Source: an uncultured bacterium (GTDB lineage Bacteria; Patescibacteriota; Minisyncoccia; Moranbacterales; UBA2206). From it: a DNA stretch of 64,000 nucleotides. Below, one piece after another: positions 28,173 to 58,245 of this stretch; the first letter of the stretch is position 1, and every line of letters begins with the position of its first letter. A program made the translations under genes and the position numbers. The stretch lies in NCBI GenBank assembly GCA_903841185.1, contig CAIMIV010000042.1, forward strand, positions 11,319 to 75,318. Reading direction: 5' to 3'. Under the pieces are notes generated by a model, which was given only the letters and a program-made list of their open reading frames with translations, searched no databases and was not told the DNA's origin.

Positions 28173-28232
28173 CCTCAAACATGATAAAATAAAGATAAGT
28201 TTCACTGCCTATTTTAATAAAATACAAAATTC

Positions 28233-29610: not shown

Positions 29611-29652
29611 GTAATTTATTTAAAATCCCTTAAAAAATAAATTAAGAAAAAT

Positions 29653-38007: not shown

Positions 38008-38014
38008 AGATATT

Positions 38015-38173
38015 ATCCCAGCACTAATTCCGATATAGTTTGTAGGTAATATGGGGATGCGTGTGCGAATTCGCCTCCGGCTAGGTTGAAATTTAATAAA
38101 TTAATTCAAGTGCGAATTAGTGCGGGATGCTTATTTTTATAGCTACTCGTTCCTCGCAGATAAAAATAGCATG
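38015..38173 (+). ncRNA. Structured ~160-nt intergenic element, copy A (before hypA)
   Basis: Shares atccc(a)gca..aattc, attcgcc..cggcta, gtgcgggatgc and tagctactcgt.cctcgca with the copies at 56853 and 57567. Confidence 0.65.
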
Positions 38174-38446
38174 CATGATTTTTTTCTGGCCAAACAAATA
38201 TTGGAAAAAATTAGAGAGATAGTCATGGAAAAGAAGTTGGAAAGAATTTCCAAGGTGTCGCTGGAAATTGGCAGTATTGTTTTGGCGCATGACAATCTGC
38301 CGGAACACCTGGAGGATATTAATATTGAAAATCTGGTATTCGGATTGAAAAGTTTTGCGAAAGACACCGCGCTGGCGCAAGTGGAATTTGATGTCCAAAA
38401 AGTGGCGGGAGAAAGTTGGAAAATAACCAGTATTGAGGTAGAATAA
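38171..38446 (+). CDS. hypA: HypA-like nickel metallochaperone lacking the Zn-binding Cys motifs
   Basis: MHDFFLAKQI, V.LEIG, TALAQVEF, GE..ITSIEVE; no Cys residues. Confidence 0.75.
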   Translation: MHDFFLAKQILEKIREIVMEKKLERISKVSLEIGSIVLAHDNLPEHLEDINIENLVFGLKSFAKDTALAQVEFDVQKVAGESWKITSIEVE

Positions 38447-38537
38447 AATCATATAACATAAAATATATAATACAAAACATACAACATGAAACAACTTCTG
38501 AAGAAGGACTTGTTACATGCTAGATGTTGCATATCAC

Positions 38538-39554
38538 ATGACCAAGATTGCAATCAATGGCTTCGGTCGCATCGGCAGACCGGCCTTCAAAATCGCTTTT
38601 GAAAAGTCTCGCCAAGGCGGAATGGAAGTGGTGGCGATTAATGACCTGACAGATTTGAAAACCGTGGCGCATCTGCTCAAATATGATTCCAGCTATGGAC
38701 AATACAATCGCAGTGTGGAAGTGGATGAGACTAGTTCAGAGCTGATTATTGATGGACAAAGAATAAAATATCTGATGGAACCTGATCCGGAAAAGCTTCC
38801 TTGGGGAGAATTGGGAGTGGAGATTGTTTTGGAATGTACGGGAATTTTTGAAGATCGGGAAAAATCGCAAAAGCACCTGGCTGCGGGAGCCAAAAAAGTG
38901 ATTCTTTCTGCTCCGCCGAAAGGAGATATTCCGGTATATTTGATTGGTATTAATGAAGAGAAATATAATCCCGAACAGGATCATATTATTTCTAACGGCT
39001 CTTGCACGACCAATTGTTTGGCGCCGATGATAAAAATTTTGGACGAAAATTTTGGCGTAGAAAAAGGTTTTATGACTACTACGCATTCCTATACCAATGA
39101 TCAACGCTTGCAAGATTTGCCGCATCGTGATTTGCGAAGAGCCAGGGCGGCAGCGTTGAATATTATCCCAACCACTACCGGTGCTGCCAAGACGGTAGGA
39201 CTAGTAATGCCGCATCTGGAGGGAAAGTTAGATGGCATCTCTCTGCGCGTGCCGACTCCTGTGGTGTCAATTGTGGATTTCATTTGTACATTGAAAAGAG
39301 ACACTAGCGTGGAAGAATTAAATACTGCCTTTCGAGCGGCAGCTCAGGAGCAGCTAAAGGATATCTTGGCAGTGGAGGAGGGGCAACTGGTTTCTATGGA
39401 TTTCAAGGGCAACCCGCATTCAACGATTGTGGATTTGCCATTGACCATGGCCAATGGCAACCTGGTCAAGGTGGTGGGTTGGTATGATAATGAGTGGGGA
39501 TACTCAAATAGGTTGGTGGAGATGGCCGAATTAGTAGGAAGTAAATTGGCATAA
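38538..39554 (+). CDS. gap: Glyceraldehyde-3-phosphate dehydrogenase, type I
   Basis: INGFGRIGR, SNGSCTTNCLAP, WYDNEWGYS. Confidence 0.97.
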   Translation: MTKIAINGFGRIGRPAFKIAFEKSRQGGMEVVAINDLTDLKTVAHLLKYDSSYGQYNRSVEVDETSSELIIDGQRIKYLMEPDPEKLPWGELGVEIVLECTGIFEDREKSQKHLAAGAKKVILSAPPKGDIPVYLIGINEEKYNPEQDHIISNGSCTTNCLAPMIKILDENFGVEKGFMTTTHSYTNDQRLQDLPHRDLRRARAAALNIIPTTTGAAKTVGLVMPHLEGKLDGISLRVPTPVVSIVDFICTLKRDTSVEELNTAFRAAAQEQLKDILAVEEGQLVSMDFKGNPHSTIVDLPLTMANGNLVKVVGWYDNEWGYSNRLVEMAELVGSKLA

Positions 39555-39583
39555 TGTAATTTTAATAGTAATTTTTGTAACAA

Positions 39584-39695
39584 AATTTTTAATTTCCAAT
39601 TTTTAATTTTATAAATAAATCTTAATTTCTAAATTTTTAAACATTAGAAATTAAAACATTATTTAAAAATTACAAAATTAAAAATTATAAAATTA
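39584..39695. repeat. AT-rich, ~8-nt periodic imperfect palindrome
   Basis: aatttttaatttccaatttttaatttt...aaaattacaaaattaaaaattataaaatt; similar tract at 21124-21260. Confidence 0.6.
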
Positions 39696-39702
39696 TATTC
39701 TC

Positions 39703-41274
39703 ATGTACGACATCATCATAAAAAACGGCACCCTAATTGATGGCAGTGGTGAGCCGATGTATCGAGCGGATATTGGTATTAAGGATGATCGGATAGTGAA
39801 AATCGGAAAATTGCAAAATGAAAAAGGCGAGATTGAAATCGACGCCTCAGATCGTTTGGTTTGTCCGGGATTTGTGGATGTGAATAATCATAGTGATGTG
39901 TATTGGCGAATTTTTTCTAATCCGGAATTGGAAAGTCTCGTTTATCAAGGAATAACCACTATTGTGGGCGGCAACTGCGGCACCTCCCTGGCTCCGCTTT
40001 TGGGCGCCAAAGCGATTGAATCTTTGCAAAAGTGGTCTAATATTGATACAACTAGCTTGAATTGGCTGACAATGGAAGAATTTTTGGATGAAGTGGAAAA
40101 AAGAAAGTTGGCAGTCAATTTTGCCACTTTAGTGGGTCATGCGACGGTGCGTCGAAGGCTGGTAGGGGATGATATGCGCAGCCTTCATTTGAATGAGATT
40201 GATTTTTTAGCCAAAAAAATAAAGGTGGCCATCAAGGATGGGGCGCTGGGCATGTCTTCCGGGCTGGTATATACGCATGCCAGGAGCACTACGGAAGAGG
40301 AATTGTTGGCTTTGGCGAAAGTAATCAAAAAATATGATGGCGTGTACGTGACGCATATGCGCAATGAGGGAGCGGGCCTGCTGGAGTCGGTGGAAGAATC
40401 ATTGGAGATTGCCAGGAAAACAAAAGTTAAATTGCATATTTCTCATCTCAAGGCGGTCGGTGAAGAGAATTGGGGATTAATGGACGCGGCCTTAAATATG
40501 ATTACCCAGGCCAGGGATAATGGTGTCGACGTCACTTTCGATGTCTACCCCTATACTAATATTGGATCAGTACTCTATACCTTGCTGCCTATTTGGGTAA
40601 CGGATGGCGGCAAGAAGATGATGCTTAATCGCTTGAAAGATCCTGCGTTGCGTGTTCGAATAATTGATGATATGAGGGCTTCCGGAGTGGATTATGCTAA
40701 GATTGAGATTGCCAGTTCTTCTTTGGACAAAACCTTGGCTCGCAGAAAAATCGCCGAAATTGCGGCGTCGCAAGAAAAGTCAGTGGAAGAGGCGGTGTTG
40801 GACACTTTGGTTGCTTCGGACGGCCGGATGATTATCTCCATGGATGTTTTAAGCGAAGAAAATATCCAAAAGGCTCTAGTGCATCCCGCTTCAATGATTT
40901 CTACTAATGGAGCAGGGTATCGTGATATCCACGGCCGAACAGGCGAAGTGGTGCATCCCAGAAGCTTTGGGTCTTTTCCTCGAATTTTCCCCGAATATGT
41001 TTTAGGGAAAAGAATTTTGCGCTGGGAAGAGGCTGTGGCTAAAATGACTTCCCTTCCGGCGGAGAAATTTGGCATTGAAAAAAGAGGTCGGTTGAAAGAA
41101 AAATATTATGCCGATATCGTTATTTTCAATCGGGATGAAATTAGAGATTTGGCCACGACAGAGAACCCCTATCAATATAGCCAAGGCATTGATTTCGTGC
41201 TGGTTAACGGACAGGTCCTTTTGCAAGAAGGCCGGTATAATGGGAACAAGGCGGGGGAGGTAATAAGAAGGTAA
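39703..41274 (+). CDS. N-acyl-D-amino-acid deacylase-family amidohydrolase with altered active-site residues
   Basis: IKNGTLIDGSG, PGFVDVNNHSD, GNCG, THMR, SHLK, HPRSFGSFPR. Confidence 0.85.
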   Translation: MYDIIIKNGTLIDGSGEPMYRADIGIKDDRIVKIGKLQNEKGEIEIDASDRLVCPGFVDVNNHSDVYWRIFSNPELESLVYQGITTIVGGNCGTSLAPLLGAKAIESLQKWSNIDTTSLNWLTMEEFLDEVEKRKLAVNFATLVGHATVRRRLVGDDMRSLHLNEIDFLAKKIKVAIKDGALGMSSGLVYTHARSTTEEELLALAKVIKKYDGVYVTHMRNEGAGLLESVEESLEIARKTKVKLHISHLKAVGEENWGLMDAALNMITQARDNGVDVTFDVYPYTNIGSVLYTLLPIWVTDGGKKMMLNRLKDPALRVRIIDDMRASGVDYAKIEIASSSLDKTLARRKIAEIAASQEKSVEEAVLDTLVASDGRMIISMDVLSEENIQKALVHPASMISTNGAGYRDIHGRTGEVVHPRSFGSFPRIFPEYVLGKRILRWEEAVAKMTSLPAEKFGIEKRGRLKEKYYADIVIFNRDEIRDLATTENPYQYSQGIDFVLVNGQVLLQEGRYNGNKAGEVIRR

Positions 41275-41286
41275 TGTTTGAATAGT

Positions 41287-43812
41287 ATGAATCCTAATCC
41301 GAAAAGTTTTGAATTTACTTCGTACAAAATAAATAAAGAAAAGTCAGCAATAATTTTTTCTTATGAGATGGCTTTTTTTAATGCTGCTCCAATTCAATTC
41401 TCTGAAACAATTTCTTTTAGAGAATCTTTTTCGCTTGAAAATATTCCGGCAGAACTTTTAGAAAATTTATTGCAAAGTGTGCACATTGCACTCGGCGTAA
41501 GTTATTATAAATTATATTGTCCTAAGGAAATAAAAATTAATTCTATTCTCTCCCAAAAACAAGCTGAATTTTGGAATACGGTATATCGCAAGGGTTTGGG
41601 GGAGTTTTTTTATCGCAATCAAATTGATTCTGCGGGGCTGATAAATTTTCCTTTTGAAAAAGAAAAAAATGAAAAAGTATATCGACTAAAAAGAAAGACT
41701 AGATCTCTAGTGGGTATTGGTGGCGGAAAAGATTCTATTGTGGCAGTCGAGTTGCTACGAGAGCAGGGAGATGATGTGACAGCTTTTTTGGTGGAGACGC
41801 AACGGGAGGATAGCATTTCGCAGAATGTTGTATCCAAACTAGAAATTGGCTCAATTAAAATTGAGCGAAAATTGGACGAAAAACTTTTTGGAACATTTGA
41901 GGGAGCGTATAATGGTCATGTGCCCATTTCTTCTATCTTTGCTTTTCTAGGCTATTTAACGGCGATCTTGTACGATTATTCGCAAGTAGTGGTAGCTAAT
42001 GAATATAGTAGTAATTTTGGAAATATTATTTATGAAGGTCAGGAAATAAATCACCAATGGAGCAAATCTATGGAATTTGAAAAACTCTTTCAAGACTATA
42101 CTCGAGAAAATATTTGTCCAGACGTGCTTTATTTTTCTCTGTTGCGACAATTTTACGAAATTCGCATTATGGAGATGTTTGTTAAATATAAAAAATATTT
42201 CCCTATTTTTACCAGTTGCAACCGTAATTTCAGGGTGCATAAGGATAGGCCACAATCTTTGTGGTGCGGGGAATGTCCTAAATGTGTCTTTGCTTGGATT
42301 CTTTCGTCAGCTTTTTTAGAAAAAGAAGAATTGATTTCTATTTTCCATAAAAATCTCTACGATGACAAAAATCTTCTTCCACTATTCAAAGATATTTTAG
42401 GTTATGGCGAGATGAAACCTTTTGATTGCGTGGGAACTTTTGAGGAGTCTCGAGTGGCCTTGCACATGGCCAAGGAAAAATTTCCAGACAGTTTTATTGT
42501 GCAAAATTTGGAAGAAAAATTAGGTAACCAAGACGAGCATAAGCGCATTGTCTTCGGGACAAACGTTGCTCCAACGCTGCCAGACAAGTATAAATTATAT
42601 GGCGTAAAAAACGTGCTTATTGTTGGCTATGGAAAAGAAGGCCAGACGACTGAAAAATATTTGAAAAAATATTTCCCCCAAATAGCGATAGCGGTTGCGG
42701 ATGAAAAAGACGGCGAAAATTATTTAGATAATCAAAATGGTTATGATTTGGCAATAAAAACTCCAGGTTTACAAAAAGAAAAAATAACCATCCCATATAC
42801 CACCGCCACGAACCTGTTTTTTTCTCAGACAAAAAATAATTTGAAAATCGGAGTGACGGGTAGCAAAGGGAAAAGCACTACGGCATCGCTTATCTTTGTT
42901 ATCCTGAAGGAAGCTGGAAAAAAAGTGCGCTTAGTAGGAAACATTGGTGAGCCGATGTTGGAAACTCTACTAGAATCTCTGGATGAAGAAGAAATTTTTG
43001 TGATTGAACTTTCTAGCTATCAATTGGATGATCTGCACTATTCTCCAGAAATAGCTGTGGTGACCAATCTTTTTTCCGAGCATATGAATTATCATGGCAG
43101 TGTAGAAAATTATTATTTAGCTAAACAGAATATTATTAAATATCAGAATGTGGATAACCATTTTATTTTTAATGCTGCTAACGCTGATTTACAATCATGG
43201 ATTTCTCTGGCAAAAGCCAAAAAAGTAGCTTTTAATGAAATTGAAATTGCGCAGATAAAAAGTTCCCTCCTGGGTGATCATAACGCGGACAATATTAAAG
43301 CTGCTATGGCGGTGGCTGATGTTTTGGATATTCCTGATGATATCGTTGTAAGCGCGATAGAAAAATTTCAGCCACTTTTGCACCGTATGGAATTTGTGGG
43401 GGAATTCCGGCAGATAAAATTTTATAATGATGCCAATGCCACAATTCCGGAGGCCACCATAGGAGCCATAGGAGCTCTCCCTGAGGTGGAAACAATCTTT
43501 TTGGGAGGATTGGATAGGGGTTATGATTTTTCTAGCTTGGCGCAAATTATTGACGCGTCAGGAATAAAGAATATAGTATTTTTCCCTGATAGTGGCAGAA
43601 AAATAGAAGAGACATTGCAGATGATTAATCCTACAAAAAAATATAATGTTTTACATACGAAAGATATGGAGGAAGCGGTGCGGTTTGCCTATGCTAATAC
43701 AGGAAATGGAAAAGTTTGCTTGCTTTCAACAGCTTCTCCAAGCTATAGCATTTGGAAAAATTTTGTAGAAAAAGGAGAAAAATTCAAAGAGGCAATTGCA
43801 TGCCTAAAATAG
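41287..43812 (+). CDS. Fusion of MurL (UDP-MurNAc-L-Ala-L-Glu epimerase) and a MurD-type ligase
   Basis: N-half: GVSYYK, GGGKDS, NGHVP, NHQWSKS, SCNRNF, WCGECPKC, KPFDCVG. C-half: GYGKEG, GVTGSKGKSTT, GNIG, ELSSYQL, HRME, NDANAT. Confidence 0.85.
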   Translation: MNPNPKSFEFTSYKINKEKSAIIFSYEMAFFNAAPIQFSETISFRESFSLENIPAELLENLLQSVHIALGVSYYKLYCPKEIKINSILSQKQAEFWNTVYRKGLGEFFYRNQIDSAGLINFPFEKEKNEKVYRLKRKTRSLVGIGGGKDSIVAVELLREQGDDVTAFLVETQREDSISQNVVSKLEIGSIKIERKLDEKLFGTFEGAYNGHVPISSIFAFLGYLTAILYDYSQVVVANEYSSNFGNIIYEGQEINHQWSKSMEFEKLFQDYTRENICPDVLYFSLLRQFYEIRIMEMFVKYKKYFPIFTSCNRNFRVHKDRPQSLWCGECPKCVFAWILSSAFLEKEELISIFHKNLYDDKNLLPLFKDILGYGEMKPFDCVGTFEESRVALHMAKEKFPDSFIVQNLEEKLGNQDEHKRIVFGTNVAPTLPDKYKLYGVKNVLIVGYGKEGQTTEKYLKKYFPQIAIAVADEKDGENYLDNQNGYDLAIKTPGLQKEKITIPYTTATNLFFSQTKNNLKIGVTGSKGKSTTASLIFVILKEAGKKVRLVGNIGEPMLETLLESLDEEEIFVIELSSYQLDDLHYSPEIAVVTNLFSEHMNYHGSVENYYLAKQNIIKYQNVDNHFIFNAANADLQSWISLAKAKKVAFNEIEIAQIKSSLLGDHNADNIKAAMAVADVLDIPDDIVVSAIEKFQPLLHRMEFVGEFRQIKFYNDANATIPEATIGAIGALPEVETIFLGGLDRGYDFSSLAQIIDASGIKNIVFFPDSGRKIEETLQMINPTKKYNVLHTKDMEEAVRFAYANTGNGKVCLLSTASPSYSIWKNFVEKGEKFKEAIACLK

Positions 43813-44018
43813 CAGGCAAACAGAGGAAAATGGGGTTTTAGAATTTGAATCCTGTGTTTGATGTAGTGCGTTGCTTTGCCTACATGCCTATGATAGGATA
43901 AAAGTGTTGAAAATATCGGATTGTTGCTGTATGATGAAATAAATAGCGTATAATGTTGGAATAAATAACCCTCCTTGCGGCAAGCTGCGGGGAATTAACT
44001 CTAAAAGTATAAAATGAT

Positions 44019-46496: not shown

Positions 46497-46583
46497 CTTT
46501 TTTATTGCGTGCAACTGACCTAAATGATATAATAAAACCACGGAAAAAGAATAAATTCCCTAAACTAAAAAACAAAGAAAAAC

Positions 46584-49500
46584 ATGTCGCAAGCTGAGGA
46601 ATCATGCTCGATTTTTGAAAAATATAAACTGCACAAAAATTACTTCTTGTTGTTTGTAGTTTTTTGTGTCTTTGCCTTACTCAAATATCTTTCTCGATAC
46701 GAATCTTTGAGCAATTTTGTCATGGGGGCAATAGCCGTTTCCCCCTTCATCCTAACCACTGCTTTTCTCACTTGGGTCTATCTGAAGGATCGCAAGAACC
46801 ATGTCTTGTATAAGCTGATGATGAAGCAGGATGTTTTTCTCAAACTGGCTTTCAAATTGACTCTATCAGTTCTGGTGATATTGGTGGTTTTGTTTCCGGG
46901 CGATTGGAAACCGCTGTTGAATTTTTTTGATGTCGTCCGCCGGTCATTTTCCCTGGAGATGTATTTTCTTATTGCCTCATATCTCGCCGCCTTCATTCTC
47001 GCCGGCGAACTGATTTCTTTTTTTGTACGCTTGTATCAAATCAGTGTAGGCACCTATCATCACAAGATTTATCATGTTTTTAAAAAAACCCTCTACTCGA
47101 CTTTTTTTGTTTTTTTCCTGTTATTGCTTTTTTCCGTCCTGACTTATCCGCAAGCTTTCTATCCGATTACCGACGCTGTGTCCGATGTCATGTTCACCGT
47201 TAGTCAAGGTACCGTGGCTTTGTCTAAGTTATCCGGCGGGGAATTGCAAAGCAATACTTCGCTACTTAATCTGGCTAAGAATGCTTTTTCCAAAACTTCC
47301 TCCAATCTAGTCCGCAAGATGGATACAACTCAGTCGGATCTGGCCAAGTCTGTAGCACTCAGCCGGGATGCCCTTGTGCAATCGGTAGCGGACACTTCCA
47401 AAAATCTGACCGAATCGACTAATGGCAAAGTATCTTCCGATGGCGGCAAGATCAGTGGGGCGGTGGTTCTGTCCGGCAAAGGTTCTGACTTGACAGTGGA
47501 GGGCACCACTATCACTAAAGACATTCTACCGGATGCATCGTTGTCATATAATTTGGGCAGCGCAGGCAAGACTTGGAACACGGTGTATGCTCATCGCCTC
47601 ATCGGAGCGTCCCCGGTTTTCATCGGCACCGGTTCTTCCGCTCAAGGTTTGACTAATGATGGCGACCTAGTCGTGTCAAGCGATTTGGAAGTGCGAGGGA
47701 AAATTTATGCCACGCAAATTATCGGACCGGTTTCGAACACAAATAAATTTGAAGGCGGAATAATAACCAGTAGCATCGTTCCGGATGGATCAAATATCAA
47801 CCTCGGCAGCGCCAGCAATCATTTTTCCACGGTCTATGCCAACAGTCTCGTGGGTGTGCCTTTGAATTTTCTGCCGCTGATCGGTGGCACGCTTTCCGGT
47901 AATTTGAATTTAGGCAATCATAGTTTTACCACTTTCAATTCAGTCCTAGTGGACAATCTCAATGCGGATTTGTTGGATGGCAGTCAGGCCAGTGCTTTTG
48001 CCATGCTCAACGGCAGAAGTGGCGGACAAACAATCACTGGCGACACAGCGGCCGGCGGTAATCTGACCTTGTCTTCTACGAACAATGCTGCCAAAGGCAA
48101 AATAGTTTTTGGCAATTCTGCCTATGATGAAAAATCTAATCGATTGGGAATTGGCACAAACACTCCGGGCGCTCTGCTGCACCTGAACAATGCCACTGCC
48201 GGCCAAAAATCTTTGATCATCCAAGGTGCGCAAAACCAATCCGCTAATTTGGTGGAAATCTATGGCTATGATTCCGGTGGCATTCCGAATGGCCAGACTT
48301 TTGACAACGCGCCGGTTTTTGATGACGCGCATACCTTTGACAACGCACCGTCTTTGATCAATCTAACTTTTGATAATAATCCTTCTAGTCTATCTGCCAT
48401 CGCCAATTACAACAGCAGTTCAGCCTACAGCGCTTACAACAATTCGCATTCGTTGAAAATATATGCCTACAAAATAATCAACGGAATTAAAATTTTTAAT
48501 CCGACGCCGATTGTAACTGCATTGAATGACGACAACAGCGGTCGTACCTACACTATCAGCTGGTCTTGGTCGCCAGCCACGGATGCGGATGGTTATCGCA
48601 TCTTCAAATCCATTAGTGACGGCTCAGCTAATTTTGATAAATTCACGGATGTAGTCGGCACGAGTTTCTACGACACTGGCGCCACTGATTTTTCTCAAGA
48701 CGGAACCTTTGACGGACGCACGAGCTTGGCCTATGCGGTCAATTACAATACCGGTTCAAGCTACGCGGCTAACGGCAGTCAGCATCAATTAGTAGTGTAT
48801 GCCTATGAATTGCATAATGGCGTCAAAATTTTCAATAACGCGCCGTTGCACATCATCCCACAGATTGATTCCAGTGGTCGAAATTTTTCTCTGGATTATT
48901 CGTGGACAGCGGCCAGTGGCGCCGACGGTTATCGGGTGTTTGACTATGACAGCTCCGCCGGAATCTATGTCAGTCGCTATGCAGACATCACGACTACGAA
49001 CTTCCATGATGCCGGTCAAAATGATTTCACGAGCAGCGGAACATTCAATGGATCTACGAGCTATACCGACGGCCATGTAGTCAATTATGGCTCCGGTTCG
49101 AGCTACGTTGCCAATGGCCAAGAACACGGCGTACGCGTCTATGCATATAAAGAATATGCCGGCACCAAGATTTTCAATCCGGATTATGCGCAAGCCCAGT
49201 TTACTGACAATAACAGCGGTCAGCACTATACCATCGATTGGTCATGGACGGCGGCCGCGGGTGCCACCGGTTATCGCGTGTTTGATTTCGACAGTGGCAA
49301 CAGCATCAATTTTGATAAATATAGCGATGTCACTAATTCCAATTTCCAAGACGCCAGTCCCGGCAGCTTCACTCACACTGGTACTTTTGACGGCATGACG
49401 GAATATACCGGTTCGATGATGGCTTCTATTTCCAAAGACGGCATTATCGACGCCGCTGGTTTTTCCATCAATGGCGTGGCGCTTAGCGTTTCCGGCTGGG

Positions 49501-52500
49501 GGAATATTGGTGGCAATCTAGCCGATCAAACTGATTTGGTGTCAGCCTTGGGAGCCAAATTGAGTCTCACAGGCGGCACGATGAGTGGTATCTTGAATTT
49601 ACCCAGCAATGGTTTGATAGTCGGCACTACTCAGATAGTCGCCCTTAACGGAGCGGTGGGCATTGGCACAGCGACCCCGTCAGCCAGTTATCAATTGACC
49701 GTCAATGGCGATGTCAATGTGACTAACGGCCTGTTGCGTTTTTCCGGCACGCAGATCGGACTTAATAATTTGAAAAATGTCGCAGTCGGTTCGCCCGCGG
49801 TCAATCAAGTACTGGCGTTCAATGGCACCAATTGGGTCAATACCACCTTAAGCAGTGTTTCCGCGGGCAATGTCGTGTCTTTCTATTTGCAAACTCAAGC
49901 TGGTGACATTTCACCTTTCAAGCAATTGCAAGCTACTCCGGGCGCGGGTTCTGAGGTGGATGTGCATGCCACAGTCAGCAACAACCTGAGCAGTCCAACT
50001 TTGCTGGAAGAATATATCTCTTCCGCCGCGGGACTTGGTGGCAATCAAATTGATGGCGGGGAGTGGGAATTTGACACCTTCGGTTTCGTTTCCGATGCAA
50101 GCGGCGATTCGGAAATTCAAATCGATGTTTTTACGCGAGCTACCAACGGCACCGAGACCTATCTATTCACCGCCAATACCGGATCAATCACCGGCACTAC
50201 CGCTGATGCACAAGCGATGGCAGTCAATTCGACTCAATCAGCTTTCAGCATCGCACCCAGTGACCGTTTAGTGGTCAAATATTCGGCTAAAACGGATTTG
50301 CTCAGCGGAACAACAATCCATCTTTTGCATAACGGTCAAGATCATTATTCACATTTTCATACGCCAATGCTCACGCGCCATAATGATATGGCCGGTTTGC
50401 AAGGCGGAACCAATCAGCAATATTATCATCTAACATCTTCTGAATACACCGGGACAGGGACAGGGACTTTTGTGCGGCAATCTTCACCGGCTTTCACCGG
50501 CACAACGACCGGTATCACCGCAACTATGGTGGGGTTGGGGAATGTGCCGAATTTGGCGTTCAGCGGTTCCAATACGGGCGACAATGCCGTCAATTCTCTG
50601 TATAGTGGCTTGATTACTAATGCCACGCACACAGGTGACGCGACGGGCGCAAGCGCTTTGACCGTGGTGGGCATCAACGGCACGCAATTGTCAGCATTAG
50701 CGACCGGCATTTTGAAAAACACCACCACCACTGGCGTGCCGAGTATCGCCGTGGCGGGAGATTTTCCGACTTTGAATCAAAACACCTCCGGCACCGCCGC
50801 CGGACTTTCTGCTATATTGGTATCTACCAGTGGCGGTTCTGGCATTAACAATTCCGGCACTTTGACTTGGGGCACAGGTGGCACCTTGGGAACAAATGCT
50901 TTCACGAGCACAGCCTATGCGCCATTGGCTTCACCGACATTTACGGGAGACATAAATTTCCCTGGTTCTGGGGTTTGGAATTCGAGTGGCAACGTGGGGA
51001 TTGGGACGATTTCGCCAAACGCACTACTAGATATAAATCATATTGGTGCAATTGCTATTCCCGGCTTTAATATTGCGGCAACAGATGCAAACAATGCCTA
51101 TCAATTAAAAATCTTGGGCCACACAGGAGGGGTCTCTCATACACAAATTGTAACGGACAATTCCAATAGCAGATTAACAGTAATGGCAGGAGCGCAAAAT
51201 GACTTTGCTCCACGCATGTTCTTTATTGGTGCGCAAGATGCAACAACATCCTTGCGAGGTTGGGGAACATTTGATTATGGTTCAAATTTATATGATTTAG
51301 ATACTGCAGAGTTCCAAGTAAGACAGGTCTCCACTGGTGGGTTCACTACCATGTTCAGATCAGTTGGAAAAGCTGGGTCATTATTTCCTTCTGGAACAGT
51401 TGGAATAGGAAGTTCTGTCATATCTGTCGCCAAATTTTCGGTAGAAAATACCGGAACTACGGATTCTTTTTTAGTTAACGATGAGGCGAGTGACACAACG
51501 CCGTTTGTAATTAATACAGATGGTAACGTTGGTATTGGGAGGACAAGTCCGGGCTATAAATTAGATATTTCTACGCCAGGAAATTCTGATGCACAATTAC
51601 ATATTAATTCATCAAATCCTTATAGTGATACGGGAGGGTATATTAGTAGCGGAGCGGCGGCTAATCTAGGTTTGGCAGGAGGAACCGCACTTAGTGGTGG
51701 GGCATGGAAAGTTAAAACAACTACCGGAGCTTCACTTATAAATTTGGGTTCAGGCGCAATGACTTTTTATACAAATGACACAAGTGCTGCTACTCCCGGA
51801 GATATCTTGAGCCTGTCAGCCCGTATGAAAATAACCAATACCGGCAACGTCGGCATCGGGGCGACGAGTCCTCTATACAAATTTGATGTATCAAATGACG
51901 GAGTAGCGAAATCCTTGCTCCACTTTTCTCAGAGCGGAACGGACGTTGGTGGATGGTTAACATCTGTGGGTGACGGTAATTTTTATATGTCATCTGGCAT
52001 GGAATATGATGCGGGAGCTGGTGGCTGGATTCAAAAATCATCAAACGGAGTTGGCAATATCATTGGCGGTGATTCGCCAGGACTGTCATTTTACACGACA
52101 AGCGGAACGGCAGTTGGATCTGTTGCAACCCTTGCTGTACGTATGAGAATAGATACGAGTGGTAACGTCGGGATTGGAACGACGGCTCCATCAACTAATT
52201 TTGAAGTTTATAGTCCCACAGTGACAAATGGTATTGTTATCCCTTTGAGAGTTAATGGAAGAATTGGAAATACGAGCGGTCAAGATGGAGTGGGAATGGA
52301 TTTTAATGGCATTTGGGATTCTTCCGGATCTGCTTTTACATTGGGTAGAATTGTCGGCAGAGAATATGGTGGTTATAAAGGAGGTTTATCTTTTTTGGTT
52401 AACAATAATGGAGCTACTGCTCCCAATTCTGCAGTAATGTCCGAGGCAATGAGAATGGATAATGTCGGTAACGTGGGGATTGGGACATCGAGTCCTGTGG

Positions 52501-55500
52501 CGAGGTTAGATGTTTCGCCAACAGTTATTACCACCACTGACCTGAAGGGGATGAATAGTGGATTGGTCTATAACGGTGGATCTACTATGACGAATTATTA
52601 CGGCCATTACATTGCCACCCCATCCGGAACAGGAATCATTACAAATAAATATGCCTTAGTAACTGAAGCTGGAGCTGGCAACGTTGGCATCGGCACGACG
52701 AGTCCAACAAACATCTTGTCTCTCGGCAACGGGGCAGCGCAAAAATTTTGGATTGAAAACTCAGTCAGTGGAACTGTCGGTCGAGCCTTGACTGTCGCTG
52801 CTGGCGGGACTGTCGCTGGCGGGACTGACATTGCGGGTGGCAATCTGATTTTGCAATCCGGTCTTGGCACGGGCACTGGCGCTAGTGCAATTTCTTTTCA
52901 AACCGGCACAACTCTCACAACCGGCACAACTTTGCAGACAATGTCTACAAAGATGACGATTTTGGGGAATGGGAATGTGGGGATTGGAACGACGAGCCCG
53001 GCAACTTTAGCGCATGTGAATCTTTCATCGGCTGCGGTGGGGACAGCGTTATATTCTTCTAATTCTGCGCTGACCCTTTCTAATCAGGATAATTCCGTGT
53101 CAGCAGATTACGTGGTTGCTGATGGAACTGCTACGCCAGGGTATCGAGGAGTTATAAGAGGTATCAGGGCGCGTGGAACTTTGGCATCTCCCACTGTGCC
53201 AGTATTAAATGATATTGTCTTTTCAGTTTTGGGTGGTATTTATGATGGTGCATCGGTTTTAAATACGGCTGCCGTAGACCTTAAAGTTGATGGTACTGTG
53301 TCTTCTGGTGTAGCTCCGCAGAGAATATCTTTTAGTACAAAGACCGGCGGGAGTGGTGGATTTGTTGAAAGGCTGACAATAAAAAATGACGGACTTATCG
53401 GGATTGGCACGACGAGCCCGGCGAGTTCTTTGAATATTGCATCATCCTTAGTGAGCACTGCTAATTATGGAACTTTGTCGGTGGGATCTTCTCCATGGGA
53501 CGGATCAACTAGTGGTAAGTTTGTTGGAGGCAGTAGTGGCACCCTAATTGCGGTTAATGCTCCTAATGTTGCAGGACTTGGATTGATTGATCTCCAATCA
53601 TTCGGCGTCAGTAGATTCAGAGTGGATTCAACGTCTGGTGTTACGATTGGAAATGCCAGTGCGGGTGCACAAAACGGTACTCACATAAGTGACCTGATGA
53701 TTTACCCTACTAGCGCTATCAATCTGACGGCCGAAGGCAGTCCAAACCTGATTATGAATGCTAATTCGTTTACAATTACTGGTGGGTATGCTACGCAAAG
53801 ATTTAATTTATTTAACCAATCAACTATCACAGCTGTTTCAGCTTTAAACATTTCAACCGAAGCGGATACATTGAATATAGCCGGCGCACCAATTTCCGCT
53901 GGTTCGGCCACGATCGCCAAATCAATTGGACTGCGGATTTCCGCCGGGACCTCGGTCGCCGCGGGGGTGACGAACGCGTACGGTTTGTATGTTGATGCTC
54001 CAACTGGTGCGAGTAATAATTATGCAGCGGTATTTAATACCGGCAATGTGGGGATTGGGACGACGAGTCCCGGATATAAATTATCAGTGGCGACACCAGG
54101 AGTGACGGCTTCACAGATGCAGATTAATTCAGCCAATCCGGCGGATGATACGGGGATGTATCTGACTTCAGCAGCGTCTGGCAATGGATTTGTTTCGGCA
54201 GGGGCTGCTTATAATGGCAGCGCTTGGGTCGCGAAGTCTGCGACCGCTTGGTCATTTGGTGGCGGAGCGTCTGGTATCAGTTGGTCTTATGATACTGGAT
54301 TAACTGCAGGCAATACTTTTACACAATCGACACGATTGAAAATTGGCACGACAGGACTGATTAGTATAGGGACTGGCAATTTATTAGCTGGGCTGGACGT
54401 TCAAAATAGCATTACTGCTACTTCGGCAGTGGCTTATGGAACAAGGCTTCAGCAAACATTAACCGCGGCGGCTAACAATGATGCGCTTGATGCCGTTTAT
54501 ATTAATCCAACTTTTACAGATGGGGCGAATACAGGCGTGACACATAACGGATTAATCGTAGTAAGTGGCAATGTCGGTATCGGGACAACGACGCCGGCCT
54601 ATACACTGGATGTCAAAGCCGCCGGCACTGGCGTCATTGCTCGCTTCAATAATAATAACAGCACCGGATGCACAGTTGCTGATGGCGGAACGATCACTTG
54701 CACTTCCGATGTCAGGCTAAAAAAGAACATCAATGATTTGAATTATGGATTGAACGAAATCATGTCTTTGCGTCCGGTTGACTATAATTGGAGATATCAA
54801 AATGACAATGGCCAAAAATATCTAGGTTTCATCGCTCAAGAAGTGGAACAACTGTTGCCACAGTTAATTATGACAGACGCTAACGGCTACAAAGAACTTA
54901 ACACAATCGGGCTTATTCCAATCCTGACTAAATCCGTGCAAGAGCAGCAGACTGAAATTGGTGTGCAGACGCAATCAATTGCGTCTCTACAGATCAAGAC
55001 TGATAGCAACATCACCACTCTGACGGATCTGCAAAAATCAGTTGACACGCAATTGAATGTGGTGGGCAAGAGTTTGAATGTGATTAACACGCAGATCAGC
55101 GCCCAGGCGCAATCGATTGCGTCGCTGCAAGGCAAATTGGATGATCAGGAAACGAGATTGAAAGATCAAGAAGCTTTGTCAATTACTTTGCAAGCACAAA
55201 TTGCCAAATTGCAAGAACTGGTTAATCCGGATGCACTGGCATTGCTAAGCAGCAAACTGGATGCTATCTCAGAATTTATTACGATTTCTGACGGAAAATT
55301 TGATTTACTGCAAGGCACATTGAAAGCTAGTGGTGTGGAGACGGGCAAATTGGTGATTTCTGTTTCTGCGGGATCTGAAAACAACACTATCGGTGAAGCG
55401 GTTATTTGTCCGGCCGGTAAAAAAATAGACTCGACTATCCTCGCGGGAGGGACTGATTATAACAAATGTATTCTGGATGACGCAAGTTCTGATGGCAAGA

Positions 55501-55682
55501 GCGTGAAGGTGAAAGCTAGCGCGGTGACCAAGGATTCCAAAGTTTTCGTAACAGCTAAGACTGTTTCCGATAAGCCTTTGGCTGTTTCTGTGATTGAAGA
55601 CGGCAAGGGCTTTACAGTGGAAACCAAAACAGTAGTCAGTGAAGATCTGAAATTTGACTGGTGGATCGTAGGTGCAAAATAA
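46584..55682 (+). CDS. Giant membrane-anchored fibre/adhesin-like protein with GNVGIGT repeats and a peptidase S74 chaperone domain
   Basis: N-terminal TMs; three ~105-aa repeats; at least 10 GNVGIGT-like units; TSDVRLKKNI..LRPVDYNW..GFIAQEV; coiled coil. Confidence 0.85.
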   Translation: MSQAEESCSIFEKYKLHKNYFLLFVVFCVFALLKYLSRYESLSNFVMGAIAVSPFILTTAFLTWVYLKDRKNHVLYKLMMKQDVFLKLAFKLTLSVLVILVVLFPGDWKPLLNFFDVVRRSFSLEMYFLIASYLAAFILAGELISFFVRLYQISVGTYHHKIYHVFKKTLYSTFFVFFLLLLFSVLTYPQAFYPITDAVSDVMFTVSQGTVALSKLSGGELQSNTSLLNLAKNAFSKTSSNLVRKMDTTQSDLAKSVALSRDALVQSVADTSKNLTESTNGKVSSDGGKISGAVVLSGKGSDLTVEGTTITKDILPDASLSYNLGSAGKTWNTVYAHRLIGASPVFIGTGSSAQGLTNDGDLVVSSDLEVRGKIYATQIIGPVSNTNKFEGGIITSSIVPDGSNINLGSASNHFSTVYANSLVGVPLNFLPLIGGTLSGNLNLGNHSFTTFNSVLVDNLNADLLDGSQASAFAMLNGRSGGQTITGDTAAGGNLTLSSTNNAAKGKIVFGNSAYDEKSNRLGIGTNTPGALLHLNNATAGQKSLIIQGAQNQSANLVEIYGYDSGGIPNGQTFDNAPVFDDAHTFDNAPSLINLTFDNNPSSLSAIANYNSSSAYSAYNNSHSLKIYAYKIINGIKIFNPTPIVTALNDDNSGRTYTISWSWSPATDADGYRIFKSISDGSANFDKFTDVVGTSFYDTGATDFSQDGTFDGRTSLAYAVNYNTGSSYAANGSQHQLVVYAYELHNGVKIFNNAPLHIIPQIDSSGRNFSLDYSWTAASGADGYRVFDYDSSAGIYVSRYADITTTNFHDAGQNDFTSSGTFNGSTSYTDGHVVNYGSGSSYVANGQEHGVRVYAYKEYAGTKIFNPDYAQAQFTDNNSGQHYTIDWSWTAAAGATGYRVFDFDSGNSINFDKYSDVTNSNFQDASPGSFTHTGTFDGMTEYTGSMMASISKDGIIDAAGFSINGVALSVSGWGNIGGNLADQTDLVSALGAKLSLTGGTMSGILNLPSNGLIVGTTQIVALNGAVGIGTATPSASYQLTVNGDVNVTNGLLRFSGTQIGLNNLKNVAVGSPAVNQVLAFNGTNWVNTTLSSVSAGNVVSFYLQTQAGDISPFKQLQATPGAGSEVDVHATVSNNLSSPTLLEEYISSAAGLGGNQIDGGEWEFDTFGFVSDASGDSEIQIDVFTRATNGTETYLFTANTGSITGTTADAQAMAVNSTQSAFSIAPSDRLVVKYSAKTDLLSGTTIHLLHNGQDHYSHFHTPMLTRHNDMAGLQGGTNQQYYHLTSSEYTGTGTGTFVRQSSPAFTGTTTGITATMVGLGNVPNLAFSGSNTGDNAVNSLYSGLITNATHTGDATGASALTVVGINGTQLSALATGILKNTTTTGVPSIAVAGDFPTLNQNTSGTAAGLSAILVSTSGGSGINNSGTLTWGTGGTLGTNAFTSTAYAPLASPTFTGDINFPGSGVWNSSGNVGIGTISPNALLDINHIGAIAIPGFNIAATDANNAYQLKILGHTGGVSHTQIVTDNSNSRLTVMAGAQNDFAPRMFFIGAQDATTSLRGWGTFDYGSNLYDLDTAEFQVRQVSTGGFTTMFRSVGKAGSLFPSGTVGIGSSVISVAKFSVENTGTTDSFLVNDEASDTTPFVINTDGNVGIGRTSPGYKLDISTPGNSDAQLHINSSNPYSDTGGYISSGAAANLGLAGGTALSGGAWKVKTTTGASLINLGSGAMTFYTNDTSAATPGDILSLSARMKITNTGNVGIGATSPLYKFDVSNDGVAKSLLHFSQSGTDVGGWLTSVGDGNFYMSSGMEYDAGAGGWIQKSSNGVGNIIGGDSPGLSFYTTSGTAVGSVATLAVRMRIDTSGNVGIGTTAPSTNFEVYSPTVTNGIVIPLRVNGRIGNTSGQDGVGMDFNGIWDSSGSAFTLGRIVGREYGGYKGGLSFLVNNNGATAPNSAVMSEAMRMDNVGNVGIGTSSPVARLDVSPTVITTTDLKGMNSGLVYNGGSTMTNYYGHYIATPSGTGIITNKYALVTEAGAGNVGIGTTSPTNILSLGNGAAQKFWIENSVSGTVGRALTVAAGGTVAGGTDIAGGNLILQSGLGTGTGASAISFQTGTTLTTGTTLQTMSTKMTILGNGNVGIGTTSPATLAHVNLSSAAVGTALYSSNSALTLSNQDNSVSADYVVADGTATPGYRGVIRGIRARGTLASPTVPVLNDIVFSVLGGIYDGASVLNTAAVDLKVDGTVSSGVAPQRISFSTKTGGSGGFVERLTIKNDGLIGIGTTSPASSLNIASSLVSTANYGTLSVGSSPWDGSTSGKFVGGSSGTLIAVNAPNVAGLGLIDLQSFGVSRFRVDSTSGVTIGNASAGAQNGTHISDLMIYPTSAINLTAEGSPNLIMNANSFTITGGYATQRFNLFNQSTITAVSALNISTEADTLNIAGAPISAGSATIAKSIGLRISAGTSVAAGVTNAYGLYVDAPTGASNNYAAVFNTGNVGIGTTSPGYKLSVATPGVTASQMQINSANPADDTGMYLTSAASGNGFVSAGAAYNGSAWVAKSATAWSFGGGASGISWSYDTGLTAGNTFTQSTRLKIGTTGLISIGTGNLLAGLDVQNSITATSAVAYGTRLQQTLTAAANNDALDAVYINPTFTDGANTGVTHNGLIVVSGNVGIGTTTPAYTLDVKAAGTGVIARFNNNNSTGCTVADGGTITCTSDVRLKKNINDLNYGLNEIMSLRPVDYNWRYQNDNGQKYLGFIAQEVEQLLPQLIMTDANGYKELNTIGLIPILTKSVQEQQTEIGVQTQSIASLQIKTDSNITTLTDLQKSVDTQLNVVGKSLNVINTQISAQAQSIASLQGKLDDQETRLKDQEALSITLQAQIAKLQELVNPDALALLSSKLDAISEFITISDGKFDLLQGTLKASGVETGKLVISVSAGSENNTIGEAVICPAGKKIDSTILAGGTDYNKCILDDASSDGKSVKVKASAVTKDSKVFVTAKTVSDKPLAVSVIEDGKGFTVETKTVVSEDLKFDWWIVGAK

Positions 55683-55861
55683 TAAGCATATTTTGCCTTA
55701 GAGCCGAAAAAGTTTGACCCGGTTGCGTCTTTGCCCTATACTATAAAGGCTATTCCAGAAGATCTTTTGGAGACTGAATTTGGCAGGGACTATAGACAAA
55801 TTTTTTATATCTGTTATAATAAATTACAGTTTTTAGAAAGCAGAATTAGGGTAAAAATTAT

Positions 55862-55935
55862 GGGCCCTTAGCTCAGTTGGCTAGAGCGCCTCGTTTGCAC
55901 CGAGGAGGTCGGGAGTTCGAATCCCCCAGGGTCCA
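55862..55935 (+). tRNA. tRNA-Ala(TGC)
   Basis: Cloverleaf; anticodon arm cctcg-tttgcac-cgagg; G3:U70 pair; CCA not encoded. Confidence 0.95.
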
Positions 55936-56065
55936 CACTTCGACTCATCTTGATTTACATCAAGATTCGCTCAGTGTAAACACCAGCCAATGAATATTCA
56001 TTGAGCTTGAGAAACAACACTGAGTCGAAGTACCATGAGCTTGTCGAATGGCAAGCGTAGTAACT

Positions 56066-56341
56066 ATGGAAATTATTGAAAAAGAGGGTCTCTGGTATGT
56101 TTATATAGCCAGAGCAAGAACAAATAAATACTACGTAGGAATCAGCAATAATGTTGAAAAAAGAATAGACAAGCACAATAGTGGGAACGGTTCCAATATG
56201 GCAAAGCAACAAGGACCATTTTGCTTGGTTTATAAATCTGGGTCATTTATAAACAAATCAGAAGCAAGAAAGAGAGAGGCTCAAATAAAAAAATGGAGTA
56301 GAGTTAAAAAAGAGAATCTCTTGAATGGAGAGTGGAAATAA
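56066..56341 (+). CDS. Small GIY-YIG nuclease
   Basis: WYVYI..KYYVGISNNVEKRIDKHNSG..ARKREAQIKKW; alternative start at 56048. Confidence 0.9.
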   Translation: MEIIEKEGLWYVYIARARTNKYYVGISNNVEKRIDKHNSGNGSNMAKQQGPFCLVYKSGSFINKSEARKREAQIKKWSRVKKENLLNGEWK

Positions 56342-56349
56342 AATAGCAC

Positions 56350-56431
56350 GGGCGTATAGCTCAGTTTCCGCCGGTAGGCGGACCAGCCTATGGCTGGGGT
56401 CGAAAAATGACGAGGCCTCTGGTTCGAGTCC
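56350..56431 (+). pseudogene. Scrambled partial duplicate of tRNA-Ile
   Basis: 5' 17 nt and aatgacgaggcctctggttcgagtcc match the tRNA at 56461; middle replaced by two mini-hairpins; no acceptor 3' strand. Confidence 0.8.
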
Positions 56432-56460
56432 GAGAAAAGCAGTTCACAATATAAAATGTA

Positions 56461-56534
56461 GGGCGTATAGCTCAGTTGGTTAGAGCGCGTCACTGATAAT
56501 GACGAGGCCTCTGGTTCGAGTCCAGATATGCCCA
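56461..56534 (+). tRNA. tRNA-Ile(GAT)
   Basis: Cloverleaf; anticodon arm cgtca-ctgataa-tgacg. Confidence 0.95.
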
Positions 56535-56661
56535 CCTATGTTTTTTGTTTATGTTGACAACATTATTTTTATAGTATACACTTATATATAGAAAAGCCTT
56601 CAGGGGCTTTTTAAAAAACCGTAAAAACGCTTTTAAGTAAAAAAGGCTTAAATAAAAGAAA

Positions 56662-56847
56662 ATGTCTAATATAACAATGTTTTTGAAAGAGGCTAAATCG
56701 GAATTGCTAAAGGTTAATTGGCCCAGCAAAAACCAAATCATTAATTATACTATTTTGGTCATCGGCATCAGCATTGCCGGCGCTATCTTTTTGGGAAGTT
56801 TAGATTTTGGATTTAGTTATTTATTAAAAACATTTATCATTAAATAA
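56662..56847 (+). CDS. secE: Preprotein translocase subunit SecE
   Basis: ELLKVNWPSK plus one TM; upstream of nusG. Confidence 0.92.
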   Translation: MSNITMFLKEAKSELLKVNWPSKNQIINYTILVIGISIAGAIFLGSLDFGFSYLLKTFIIK

Positions 56848-56852
56848 ATGCT

Positions 56853-57010
56853 GGCATCCCGCAACGAATTCCATAATAGTTTTGTGTTATGGAAAAATTT
56901 GTTTGCAGATTCGCCTGCGGCTACACTAAATTATAAAAATTAAAGATTAATTAGCGAATTCGTGCGGGACGCTCATATTTGTAGCTGCTCGTACCTCGCA
57001 AACAAATATG
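56853..57010 (+). ncRNA. Structured ~160-nt intergenic element, copy B (before nusG)
   Basis: Closely similar to 57567-57725; final hairpin catatttgt..acaaatATG. Confidence 0.7.
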
Positions 57011-57553
57011 GCGAAACAAACCCAACATCACGGAAGAGCGTGGTATGTGATTCATACCTACAGTGGCTATGAAGACAATGTGGCGCGCAACCTGAAACAA
57101 AGAATCGAATCGATGGATATGCAGGATTTGATTTTTGATGTCATGGTTCCGATTGAAAAGAAAATCAAGATCAAAGCGGGCAAGCGCACGGTGATTGAAG
57201 AGAAGATCTATCCCGGCTATGTGCTAGTGGAGATGATTGTCACCGATGCTTCCTGGTACGTGGTGCGAAACACGCCGAACGTCACTGGATTTATCGGACT
57301 CGGTACTACTCCAACCCCGGTGGATACAGCTGAAATTGAGATGTTGAAGAAACGCATGGGTGTGTCTGAACCGAAATATAAGATTGACGTGGCCGTGGGC
57401 GATTCCATCAAAGTGGTGGATGGACCCTTCAAGGATTTTGATGCCAAGGTGGATGAGGTGGATGAGGCTAAGGGCAGAGTGAAAGTTCTGGTGTCTATCT
57501 TCGGTAGAGAAACCCCGGTGGAACTAGACTTTTTACAGATACATAAATTATAA
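57008..57553 (+). CDS. nusG: Transcription factor NusG
   Basis: WYVIHTYSGYE, YPGYVLVEM, KOW DGPF, IFGRETPVEL. Confidence 0.97.
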   Translation: MAKQTQHHGRAWYVIHTYSGYEDNVARNLKQRIESMDMQDLIFDVMVPIEKKIKIKAGKRTVIEEKIYPGYVLVEMIVTDASWYVVRNTPNVTGFIGLGTTPTPVDTAEIEMLKKRMGVSEPKYKIDVAVGDSIKVVDGPFKDFDAKVDEVDEAKGRVKVLVSIFGRETPVELDFLQIHKL

Positions 57554-57566
57554 GAAATGTAGGTGT

Positions 57567-57725
57567 GGCGTCCCGCAAAGAATTCCAAAATAGCTTCTAT
57601 ATTGTGGATAAATTTGTTTGCGAATTCGCCTTACGGCTACGTGCAGTTTTAACTAAAAAAATTAATTAGCGAATTCGTGCGGGATGCTCATATTTGTAGC
57701 TACTCGTACCTCGCAGACAAATATG
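57567..57725 (+). ncRNA. Structured ~160-nt intergenic element, copy C (before rplK)
   Basis: Same motifs and pairings as copies A and B. Confidence 0.7.
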
Positions 57726-58148: not shown

Positions 58149-58245
58149 ACCCGATGCGAAACTACGAAACATGCATGAATCTACGAACTGTTCGTAGATT
58201 CGCATTTCATTCGTAGGTTCGAATCGGTTTAATAATTTAATTTAT

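Follow-up and report, generated by a model that had tools for sequence, protein, structure and literature searches.

Among described bacterial repeats, the closest in kind to the element reported here are the Correia repeat enclosed elements (CREE) of Neisseria and the enterobacterial repetitive intergenic consensus (ERIC) sequences of enterobacteria. As described in a review, these are short (100-170 bp), non-coding, multi-copy sequences whose paired ends fold in mRNA (PMC10969869). According to the same review, they are often located directly upstream of genes and act post-transcriptionally, through RNase III at Correia ends and RNase E at ERIC, and it makes no mention of start codons (PMC10969869). 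We analysed a window, i.e. a whole stretch of 64,000 nucleotides from an uncultured Moranbacterales bacterium of the Patescibacteriota (assembly GCA_903841185.1, contig CAIMIV010000042.1, positions 11,319 to 75,318), which carries three copies of an element that is likewise short, non-coding, multi-copy and bounded by paired ends, but has no sequence relation to Correia or ERIC. Correia and ERIC repeats are found in both orientations and at variable distances from genes, whereas the orientation of the present element is fixed, 59 of its 70 distinct copies lie in two exact start-codon registers, and an additional hairpin beyond the inverted repeat bears the ATG. The copies are an uncatalogued non-coding repeated element of ~165 nt of Moranbacteria-type ultra-small bacteria. 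They represent a large, previously undescribed family of leader elements that are structured and probably mobile, akin to the MITE-like (miniature inverted-repeat transposable element) Correia and ERIC repeats and distinct from MITE-like repeats by its fixed sense orientation, its exact start-codon register and a selected hairpin containing the start codon. Our best explanation, to which we give an even chance, is that this sense-oriented element, located between a stop codon or promoter upstream and a start codon, would be a mobile MITE-like sequence whose folded form acts in mRNA.

An earlier note on this DNA had described three stretches, each nearly filling the spacer between a stop codon and the next ATG, and all three are present in the sequence, on the + strand. 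Each has two helices, P1 (the outer stem) and H (the terminal hairpin). The first copy (38009-38173; covariance model match of 163.4 bits, E 7.6e-29, model span 38009-38172) lies between a TGA at 38005-38007 and the start codon, at 38171-38173, of a 91-aa HypA-like open reading frame (ORF). Its P1 strands are located at 38015-38030 (ATCCCAGCACTAATTC, with one bulged A) and 38114-38128 (GAATTAGTGCGGGAT) and its hairpin at 38129-38170 (GCTTATTTTTAT ... ATAAAAATAGC); ATA stands in place of the conserved ATG of the family, and the ATG of the gene comes directly after the stem foot of H (class B junction, ...ATAGC followed by ATG; see below for the classes). The hypA label given by the earlier note is weak, as this ORF has no NCBIfam match at 1e-5; two ORFs, in L023 and L030, that share the initial MHDF...AKEI motif do match HypA at 1e-6 to 1e-8, under the curated cut-off. 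The second copy (56850-57014; 150.1 bits, E 2.9e-26) occupies the secE-nusG spacer, from a TAA at 56845-56847 to the nusG start codon at 57008-57010 (NusG identified by TIGR00922, 1.3e-61). Its P1 strands are at 56856-56871 (ATCCCGCAACGAATTC) and 56956-56970 (GAATTCGTGCGGGAC), and its hairpin (56971-57012) includes the start codon in its stem, CAT at 56974-56976 pairing with the ATG and the GC of codon 2 being also in the stem. The junction is of class A, codons 1-2 of nusG being the ATGGCG of the element. The third copy (57564-57729; 152.8 bits, E 8.8e-27) fills the nusG-rplK spacer, from a TAA at 57551-57553 to the rplK start codon at 57723-57725, which is again within the stem of H (57686-57727); P1 is formed by 57570-57585 (GTCCCGCAAAGAATTC) and 57671-57685 (GAATTCGTGCGGGAT), the junction is of class A (ATGGCA) and the product, L11, was identified by TIGR01632 (5.5e-60). 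Mean column identity between the three copies is 82% over ~165 nt.

The architecture was established on an alignment of 72 rows, 70 of them distinct, taken from the genome of the window (G000), from 742 kb of genome G036 and from a single locus in each of 29 further genomes. The consensus starts with (A)TGGCT, followed by the P1 5' strand ATCCC(A)GCACCAATTC, the interior, the P1 3' strand GAATTGGTGCGGGAT and H, which reads GC[T]CATTTTTGT AG CYNC loop GNRG ACAAAAATG.GC A. P1 is a 15-bp outer stem around a variable, AT-rich interior of ~85 nt; H abuts P1 without any spacer, and its 3' arm holds the ATG of the gene or stops one base short of it. The covariation of the outer stem and of the last hairpin, ATG included, that had been noticed on the window copies holds over the whole family. 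Two-sided changes affect 10 of the 15 pairs of P1 and 13 of the 15 pairs of H, with 94.7% and 94.8% of cells paired, respectively. For instance, one P1 pair is CG 45 times, AU 12 times, UA seven times and GC twice, and within G000 alone the column pair 22:120 (alignment A3) reads UA, GC, CG and AU in two copies each. No shuffle among 500 reached any of the observed P1 or H measures, and pairing falls to 36-48% when partner columns are slid. When 69 copies were folded singly, P1 and H were recovered in ~60, and every other helix was present in fewer than 30% of the folds. Pairing of the 5' flank ATGGCT with the 5' arm of H was rejected, no covariation being found. Mimicry of a Shine-Dalgarno (SD)/anti-SD pair by P1 (GGTG/CACC) was also rejected, because these positions vary freely in a covarying fashion.

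These data bear on the possibility that the element is a classical cis-regulator, i.e. a riboswitch or protein-binding leader in which a conserved sensor inside P1 would toggle H between a closed and an open state. The combination of P1 and a sequestering hairpin resembles the layout of translational riboswitches, TTCGCCTGCGGCTTAG is the best-conserved segment of the interior, and both the loop ends of H (UCG...CUC) and a dinucleotide at positions 133-134, in most cases AG, recur across copies, as for a protein operator. However, the rest of the interior is variable and without covarying helices, and no alternative pairing covaries with H. The earlier note had proposed that an internal segment (ATTTGTTTGC), complementary to the 3' arm of H, provides an alternative or pseudoknotted fold that frees the ATG. 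This complementarity does exist in the nusG and rplK copies; it is lacking in the hypA copy and in most of the 70 members, and only copies whose interior reads TTTGTTTGCG have it. The segment varies from copy to copy and shows no covariation with H, and a mutual-information scan gave no signal, which argues against such a switch.

The family is larger than the three copies first noticed. A covariance model (R1) built from the eight copies of G000, with nhmmer used in addition, finds all eight at E<=9e-24, the next-best match being at 0.004. This gap, together with the failure of all shuffles to reach the observed covariation, excludes chance. The five copies located outside the window precede rpmA, galU, nifU, a 15-codon ORF and a gene that has its own SD 55 nt further on. 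Applied to 61 genomes of the same order, R1 gave 288 matches, which are distributed over 39 genomes (range per genome, 0-36). Among same-genus genomes, one has no R1 match and another has one; the model found no copy in G002 and G006. In an even sample of 151 genomes across the phylum, matches were found in five, two of them being G000 and another member of the order and the remaining three, outside the order, being weak (E 1e-4 to 8e-4). An exact 22-mer of the element was found in 60 stretches of a species-representative genome collection, mostly in records titled Candidatus Moranbacteria, Moraniibacteriota or Parcubacteria group, and in none of the viral contigs searched.

The element had been thought to be undescribed, and the comparison with Rfam 15 is in agreement with this. 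At gathering threshold, only two tRNAs were found in the 64-kb window, and at E<=10 the three copies gave only chance-level matches below 19 bits; none of the known ribozyme families matched them, even at E<=10. A tRNA-like fold of the element was rejected, as only known tRNAs turned up. Our literature search found no published account of such an element. An Rfam match, or random orientation and distance relative to start codons, had been named beforehand as evidence that would speak against the proposal; we found no Rfam family, and orientation and register are kept. A large and well-defined RNA/DNA family, with 288 matches in 61 genomes, is absent from Rfam.

All copies are in sense orientation relative to the downstream gene, with their conserved ATG (columns 160-162) paired to a CAT at columns 124-126. 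In class A (41 of the 70 distinct copies), the ORF starts at this conserved ATG and the protein begins with MA. In class B (18 of 70), it begins 5 nt further on (GGC followed by ATG), and the conserved ATG is often ATT, ATC or ATA with the partner base changed to match. Five of the remaining 11 copies are at other offsets, and six have no ORF of at least 40 aa in the sequence examined. All 33 copies from G036 face an ORF, 28 of them (21 + 7) at the two registers, and in two copies with nested inserts ...ATGGCA resumes after the insert; in genome G010, 16 of 20 copies are at the two registers. The suggestion that the element is adapted to the start of each target gene is supported: the 5' arm of H complements the second codon of the gene itself. 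For instance, the ATGGCG of nusG is matched by CGC[T]CAT and the ATGACA of galU by TGT[T]CAT; for elongation factor EF-G, ATGCGA is matched by TC[T]GCAT, where the T run is one base shorter, matching the A run. At galU the element has added a codon, as the congener reads ATGAAAATC and G000 reads ATGACAAAGATT. ATGGC as a sufficient target was rejected: 78 of 648 G036 ORFs begin with ATGGC and only 17 of these 78 are element-led (the list includes 24 element-led ORFs, 17 of them starting with ATGGC). In G036 (C1:166730-166790), an ATGGCG-start gene is preceded by the 3' half of H only (CAGCTCGCAGACAAAAATGGCG); in this truncated relic, the start codon has no pairing partner.

A hairpin that includes or abuts the AUG and would have to open for initiation is likewise found in the MS2 replicase operator, the T4 operators and the fourU and ROSE thermometers; the lower stem of H is A-U rich. 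These are single-gene or phage elements with a demonstrated function, whereas the present hairpin, whose role is predicted, belongs to an element repeated in front of up to 36 genes per genome and has no SD to mask.

The earlier note had also considered a mobile element. It is likely that the element is indeed mobile and MITE-like, because its presence differs between congeners and its copies nest in or overwrite one another and form genome-specific subfamilies. Empty sites were found in same-genus genomes for nusG, rplK, nifU, rpmA and galU. The spacers of relatives, whose inspection had been suggested, are unrelated to the element before nusG and rplK in G002, and the secE-nusG spacer of G006 is 1 nt long. 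The nusG-rplK spacer of G002 (L039 2040-2190) consists of 145 nt of unrelated, GC-richer sequence and may be a different rplK leader. At nifU, the empty sites have an A-rich spacer of 16 or 22 nt (G002, G001), and the G000 spacer is TGCTATT plus the element. At rpmA, which encodes a 97% identical protein, promoter and leader are common up to ~40 nt before the ATG at the empty site. Comparison of filled and empty sites thus indicates that the element substitutes the last ~20 nt of the native spacer and is not a clean insertion.

Overwriting is visible as relics: 7 of the 33 G036 copies have 25-40 nt of the 5' arm of another copy 0-16 nt upstream. G010 and G036, which belong to the same genus, share nine orthologous loci, with the same copy at seven; at the other two, rpoD and pilM, G036 has a copy of another subfamily than G010 (17-19 of 60 stem positions differ, with 8 pairs compensated each), and both of these G036 copies carry an upstream relic. 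Two other cases from G036 are copies with a shorter P1-type element nested in the H loop, one being flanked by CTCG on both sides. In a FastTree phylogeny (166 columns, without support values), copies cluster by genome subfamily, such as an eight-copy G036 clade, and by adjacency (nusG with rplK, groES with groEL, rplC with rplD), not by gene; the hypA copies of six genomes are scattered.

Among the properties of MITEs, the element is short (~165 nt), non-coding, multi-copy (0-36 copies) and polymorphic for presence, as the empty sites of congeners show. P1 provides an inverted repeat of 15-16 bp; the 3' 45 nt, i.e. H, are outside this repeat, and relatives that have only P1 end at it. A partial scan of G036 and G000 with loose motif pairs found no convincing autonomous unit of 0.3-4 kb with the same ends. 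In REPINs, which are mobilised by RAYT tyrosine transposases, a pair of inverted arms folds into a long hairpin whose stem is kept by compensatory changes, and each genome has many extragenic copies. The present element is like them in its inverted arms that form a hairpin, its compensatory changes and its many copies per genome, and unlike them in its spacer of ~85 nt between the arms. Moreover, in contrast with the REPIN/RAYT association, RAYT-like genes are flanked by palindromes other than P1, and the Y1_Tnp domain does not co-occur with the element: it is found in 28 of 39 genomes that carry the element and in 11 of 22 that do not, which is no association, and the 11 element-bearing genomes without a Y1_Tnp match include ones with 16 and 10 copies. 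Y1 (RAYT-like) transposase genes of ~215 aa are found in G000 (C65:~1050, C12:~69900, C59:~12700) and G036 (C1:~262200), each bracketed by its own small perfect palindrome, which differs from gene to gene. Unlike integron attC sites, which form cassette arrays next to an integrase and whose core sites (RYYYAAC/GTTRRRY) were not searched for, the copies are inside core operons (secE-nusG-rplK, groES-groEL, S10/spc) and scattered over contigs. Archaeal-type bulge-helix-bulge introns were rejected, as PF01974 is absent from the five genomes searched, with positive archaeal controls; RtcB is present in all five, including the copy-free G002 and G006, and is uninformative.

The seven orthologous G010/G036 copy pairs inform on what happens after insertion. 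Stem positions are identical at 390 of 402 (97%) and interior positions at 470 of 566 (83%; Fisher p 3.7e-13), and the downstream coding DNA of the nine pairs is 75-89% identical. This difference between stems and interior argues that P1 and H are under selection in place. Taken with the gene-specific compensation of the second codon, it would mean that both helices matter after insertion, a role that seems most simply explained in mRNA.

Furthermore, sense transcription of the copies is likely, since they have intra-operon positions and upstream promoters. Copies are located between consecutive operon genes in secE/nusG/rplK of the window, groES/groEL and rplC/rplD. A promoter matching the consensus at 12 of 12 positions (TTGACA-16-TATAAT) is 85 nt upstream of the rpmA copy and is kept at the empty site of the congener, and several other copies are preceded by TGnTATAAT boxes at a distance of 10-35 nt. 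A consensus promoter scan inside copies 2 and 3 found no promoter-like site, although AT-rich words resembling -10 boxes are present in the interior. Most genes of G000 and G036 have A-rich leaders without SD, a minority having a strong AAGGAGGTGA-type site, and an SD-like 4-mer precedes 16-18% of crude ORF starts; a short motif for the 16S 3' end was not found in the G000 or G036 assembly. In G036, the median folding energy from -45 to +12 is -15.7 kcal/mol for 31 element-led genes vs -5.6 kcal/mol for 623 other ORFs, and the probability that the AUG is unpaired is 0.018 vs 0.58, the other starts being crude as the most upstream ATG was taken. From these values we infer that H would occlude the start codon, in a lineage mostly devoid of SD sites.

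NCBIfam identifies, among the genes led by the element, those of ribosomal proteins S7, S8, S12, S14, L3, L4, L11, L15, L23 and L27, together with EF-G, EF-Ts, NusG, RpoD, GroES, GroEL, SecY, SecG, FtsZ, FtsK and SMC. Others encode UvrA, MurA, MraY, GlyRS, Fmt, MnmA, SHMT, pyruvate kinase, aldolase, GalU, NifU, HypA/HypC-like proteins and pilus proteins. No coherent pathway or regulon emerges from these identities. This is a further point against the classical cis-regulator introduced above, as is the fact that copies are too alike within a genome, and too patchily distributed among relatives, for an ancient regulon. The element therefore lacks the marks of a riboswitch (conserved sensor helices, alternative pairing, coherent downstream genes), and a classical cis-regulator appears very improbable.

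Several observations weigh against a mobile element acting in mRNA. The led genes are a mixed set, some of them essential and presumably strongly expressed (ribosomal proteins, EF-G, GroEL, RpoD), and a constitutive block on the start codons of such genes is paradoxical. The interior has no helix conserved across single-sequence folds. On the + strand, A.C mismatches in the helices exceed G.U ones (69 vs 19, or 52 vs 19 when one doubtful pair is left out), and in 64 of 69 copies the antisense form of H, taken by itself, is the more stable one; for the whole element, sense and antisense do not differ (-46.6 vs -46.0 kcal/mol). This A.C excess and the stabler antisense H are the opposite of what simple selection on sense RNA gives, and would fit a folded bottom strand of DNA. 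Gene conversion among copies could partly raise the stem identity of orthologous copies. As regards mobility itself, no transposase is linked to the element, and a possible target-site duplication, ATGGC, flanks only ~40% of copies on both sides and shows no dependence on the 3' variants.

The strand asymmetry is what would be expected of a purely selfish DNA repeat, in which P1 and H would be needed on single-stranded DNA for copying, like the hairpins of REPIN/RAYT systems, of IS200/IS605 ends or of the attC bottom strands of integrons, the start-codon position would reflect target choice and there would be no RNA role. The patchy distribution with a copy number of 0 to 36, the nesting and overwriting among copies, and P1-only relatives in other contexts, including around tRNA genes, are also in line with it. 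However, resident orthologous copies hold their stems better than their interiors, and H has a 5' arm fitted to the codons of each gene, which a transposing unit cannot include. Moreover, the Y1 (HUH) transposase tracks the element poorly, its genes carry other palindromes, and the loose motif scan revealed no autonomous partner. We consider this alternative unlikely.

The position of the copies between cistrons of conserved operons, with H directly abutting P1, raises another alternative, an RNA-processing module in which P1, alone or stacked on H, would be cut by RNase III, another nuclease or itself. Cistrons would be separated and the ~85-nt interior released, H being kept as a protective 5' hairpin or its 5' arm being removed, which would free the AUG. 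Correia elements from Neisseria are cut at their paired ends by RNase III, as stated in the review cited above (PMC10969869), and P1-type stems also surround whole tRNA genes, i.e. RNAs that need excision. This is countered by the size of the helices, since P1 (15 bp, bulge) and H (~16 bp, bulge) are each below the length of classical RNase III substrates, and by the known ribozyme families, none of which matches the copies. In addition, the two junction classes place the AUG 5 nt apart, so that a single fixed cut cannot yield both as leaderless mRNAs. We regard such processing as quite unlikely.

Under our best explanation, the following course can be proposed. The element would spread as DNA, via some enzyme or by recombination anchored at start codons, and the resident copy would be transcribed within leader or intercistronic RNA. 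P1 would then loop out the inserted interior, and H would occlude the initiation region, which in this lineage is normally an unstructured A-rich tract without SD. For the downstream gene to be translated, H would have to be opened or removed, and the agent could be a helicase, a nuclease, a binding protein, ribosomal protein S1 or temperature. A more far-reaching version, which we put forward only tentatively and hold to be unlikely, is that of a self-propagating translational operator: ~4% of the genes of this SD-poor bacterium would have received a hairpin that occludes the start codon and is read by one trans factor (a nuclease, helicase or RNA-binding protein), and the same P1 would be a signal for processing or excision around tRNAs in a sister family. 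Such an operator would define a genome-wide post-transcriptional regulon including ribosomal protein, EF-G, GroEL and sigma-70 genes.

If the helices act in mRNA, a translation-initiation structure would have been brought ready-made by a mobile element to dozens of core genes, chaperonin and ribosomal-protein operons included, in bacteria whose regulatory repertoires are minimal. The element would then be a selfish repeat that rewires post-transcriptional control across a reduced genome, and would bear on the choice of start sites without SD pairing. In practice, it will mislead the calling of gene starts and the annotation of operons in Patescibacteria.

P1-type stems without H (CCC(A)GCAC..AATT / AATT..GTGCGGG) are found in both G000 and G036. 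R1 matches these P1-only elements over model positions 8-119, and they are linked to the element by the stem motif and weak model matches (29-49 bits). Three of them in G000 (C32:14756-14898(-), C44:14148-14286(+) and C25:3799-3911(-)) have a 3' arm ending in GCGGGATG or GCGGGGTG, and the following ORF begins with this ATG or GTG. In the C44 one, AGGAG is located just before the 5' arm, and the stem would bring this SD and the ATG together.

Other P1-only elements adjoin or surround tRNA genes, and some are then followed by a copy of the tRNA tail. Like the main element, these tRNA-associated ones end in a copy of the gene part that they displace, but they have neither hairpin H nor start codon. 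Complete tRNA genes are also found inside P1-type stems (CCCCGCACC...GGTGCGGGG, with flanks TTCA and CAAG) that interrupt decayed copies of tRNA genes. For instance, in G000 (C3:14007-14160, within 13950-14230) a tRNA-Leu(GAG) is inside an outer gene with acceptor halves GCCTTCG/CGAAGGC, and the same P1-enclosed pattern is found in G036 (L075:1800-6400, L077 and L078) for tRNAs Val, Phe, Pro, Gly, Arg and Gln.

The window harbours further repeats. A second family of ~240-nt units with long inverted repeats is located at 23895-29625 (units 24153-24396, 24874-25098, 26084-26194 and 29362-29625). An ORF of 3032 aa (46584-55682) contains many diverged internal DNA repeats with a period of ~300-500 nt (GGnAAyGTnGGnATyGG...ACGAGyCC). 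Finally, the rplK-rplA spacer is filled by an inverted repeat (58135-58243) unrelated to the element, with arms of 54 nt that are 70% complementary and a terminator-like core at 58176-58202.

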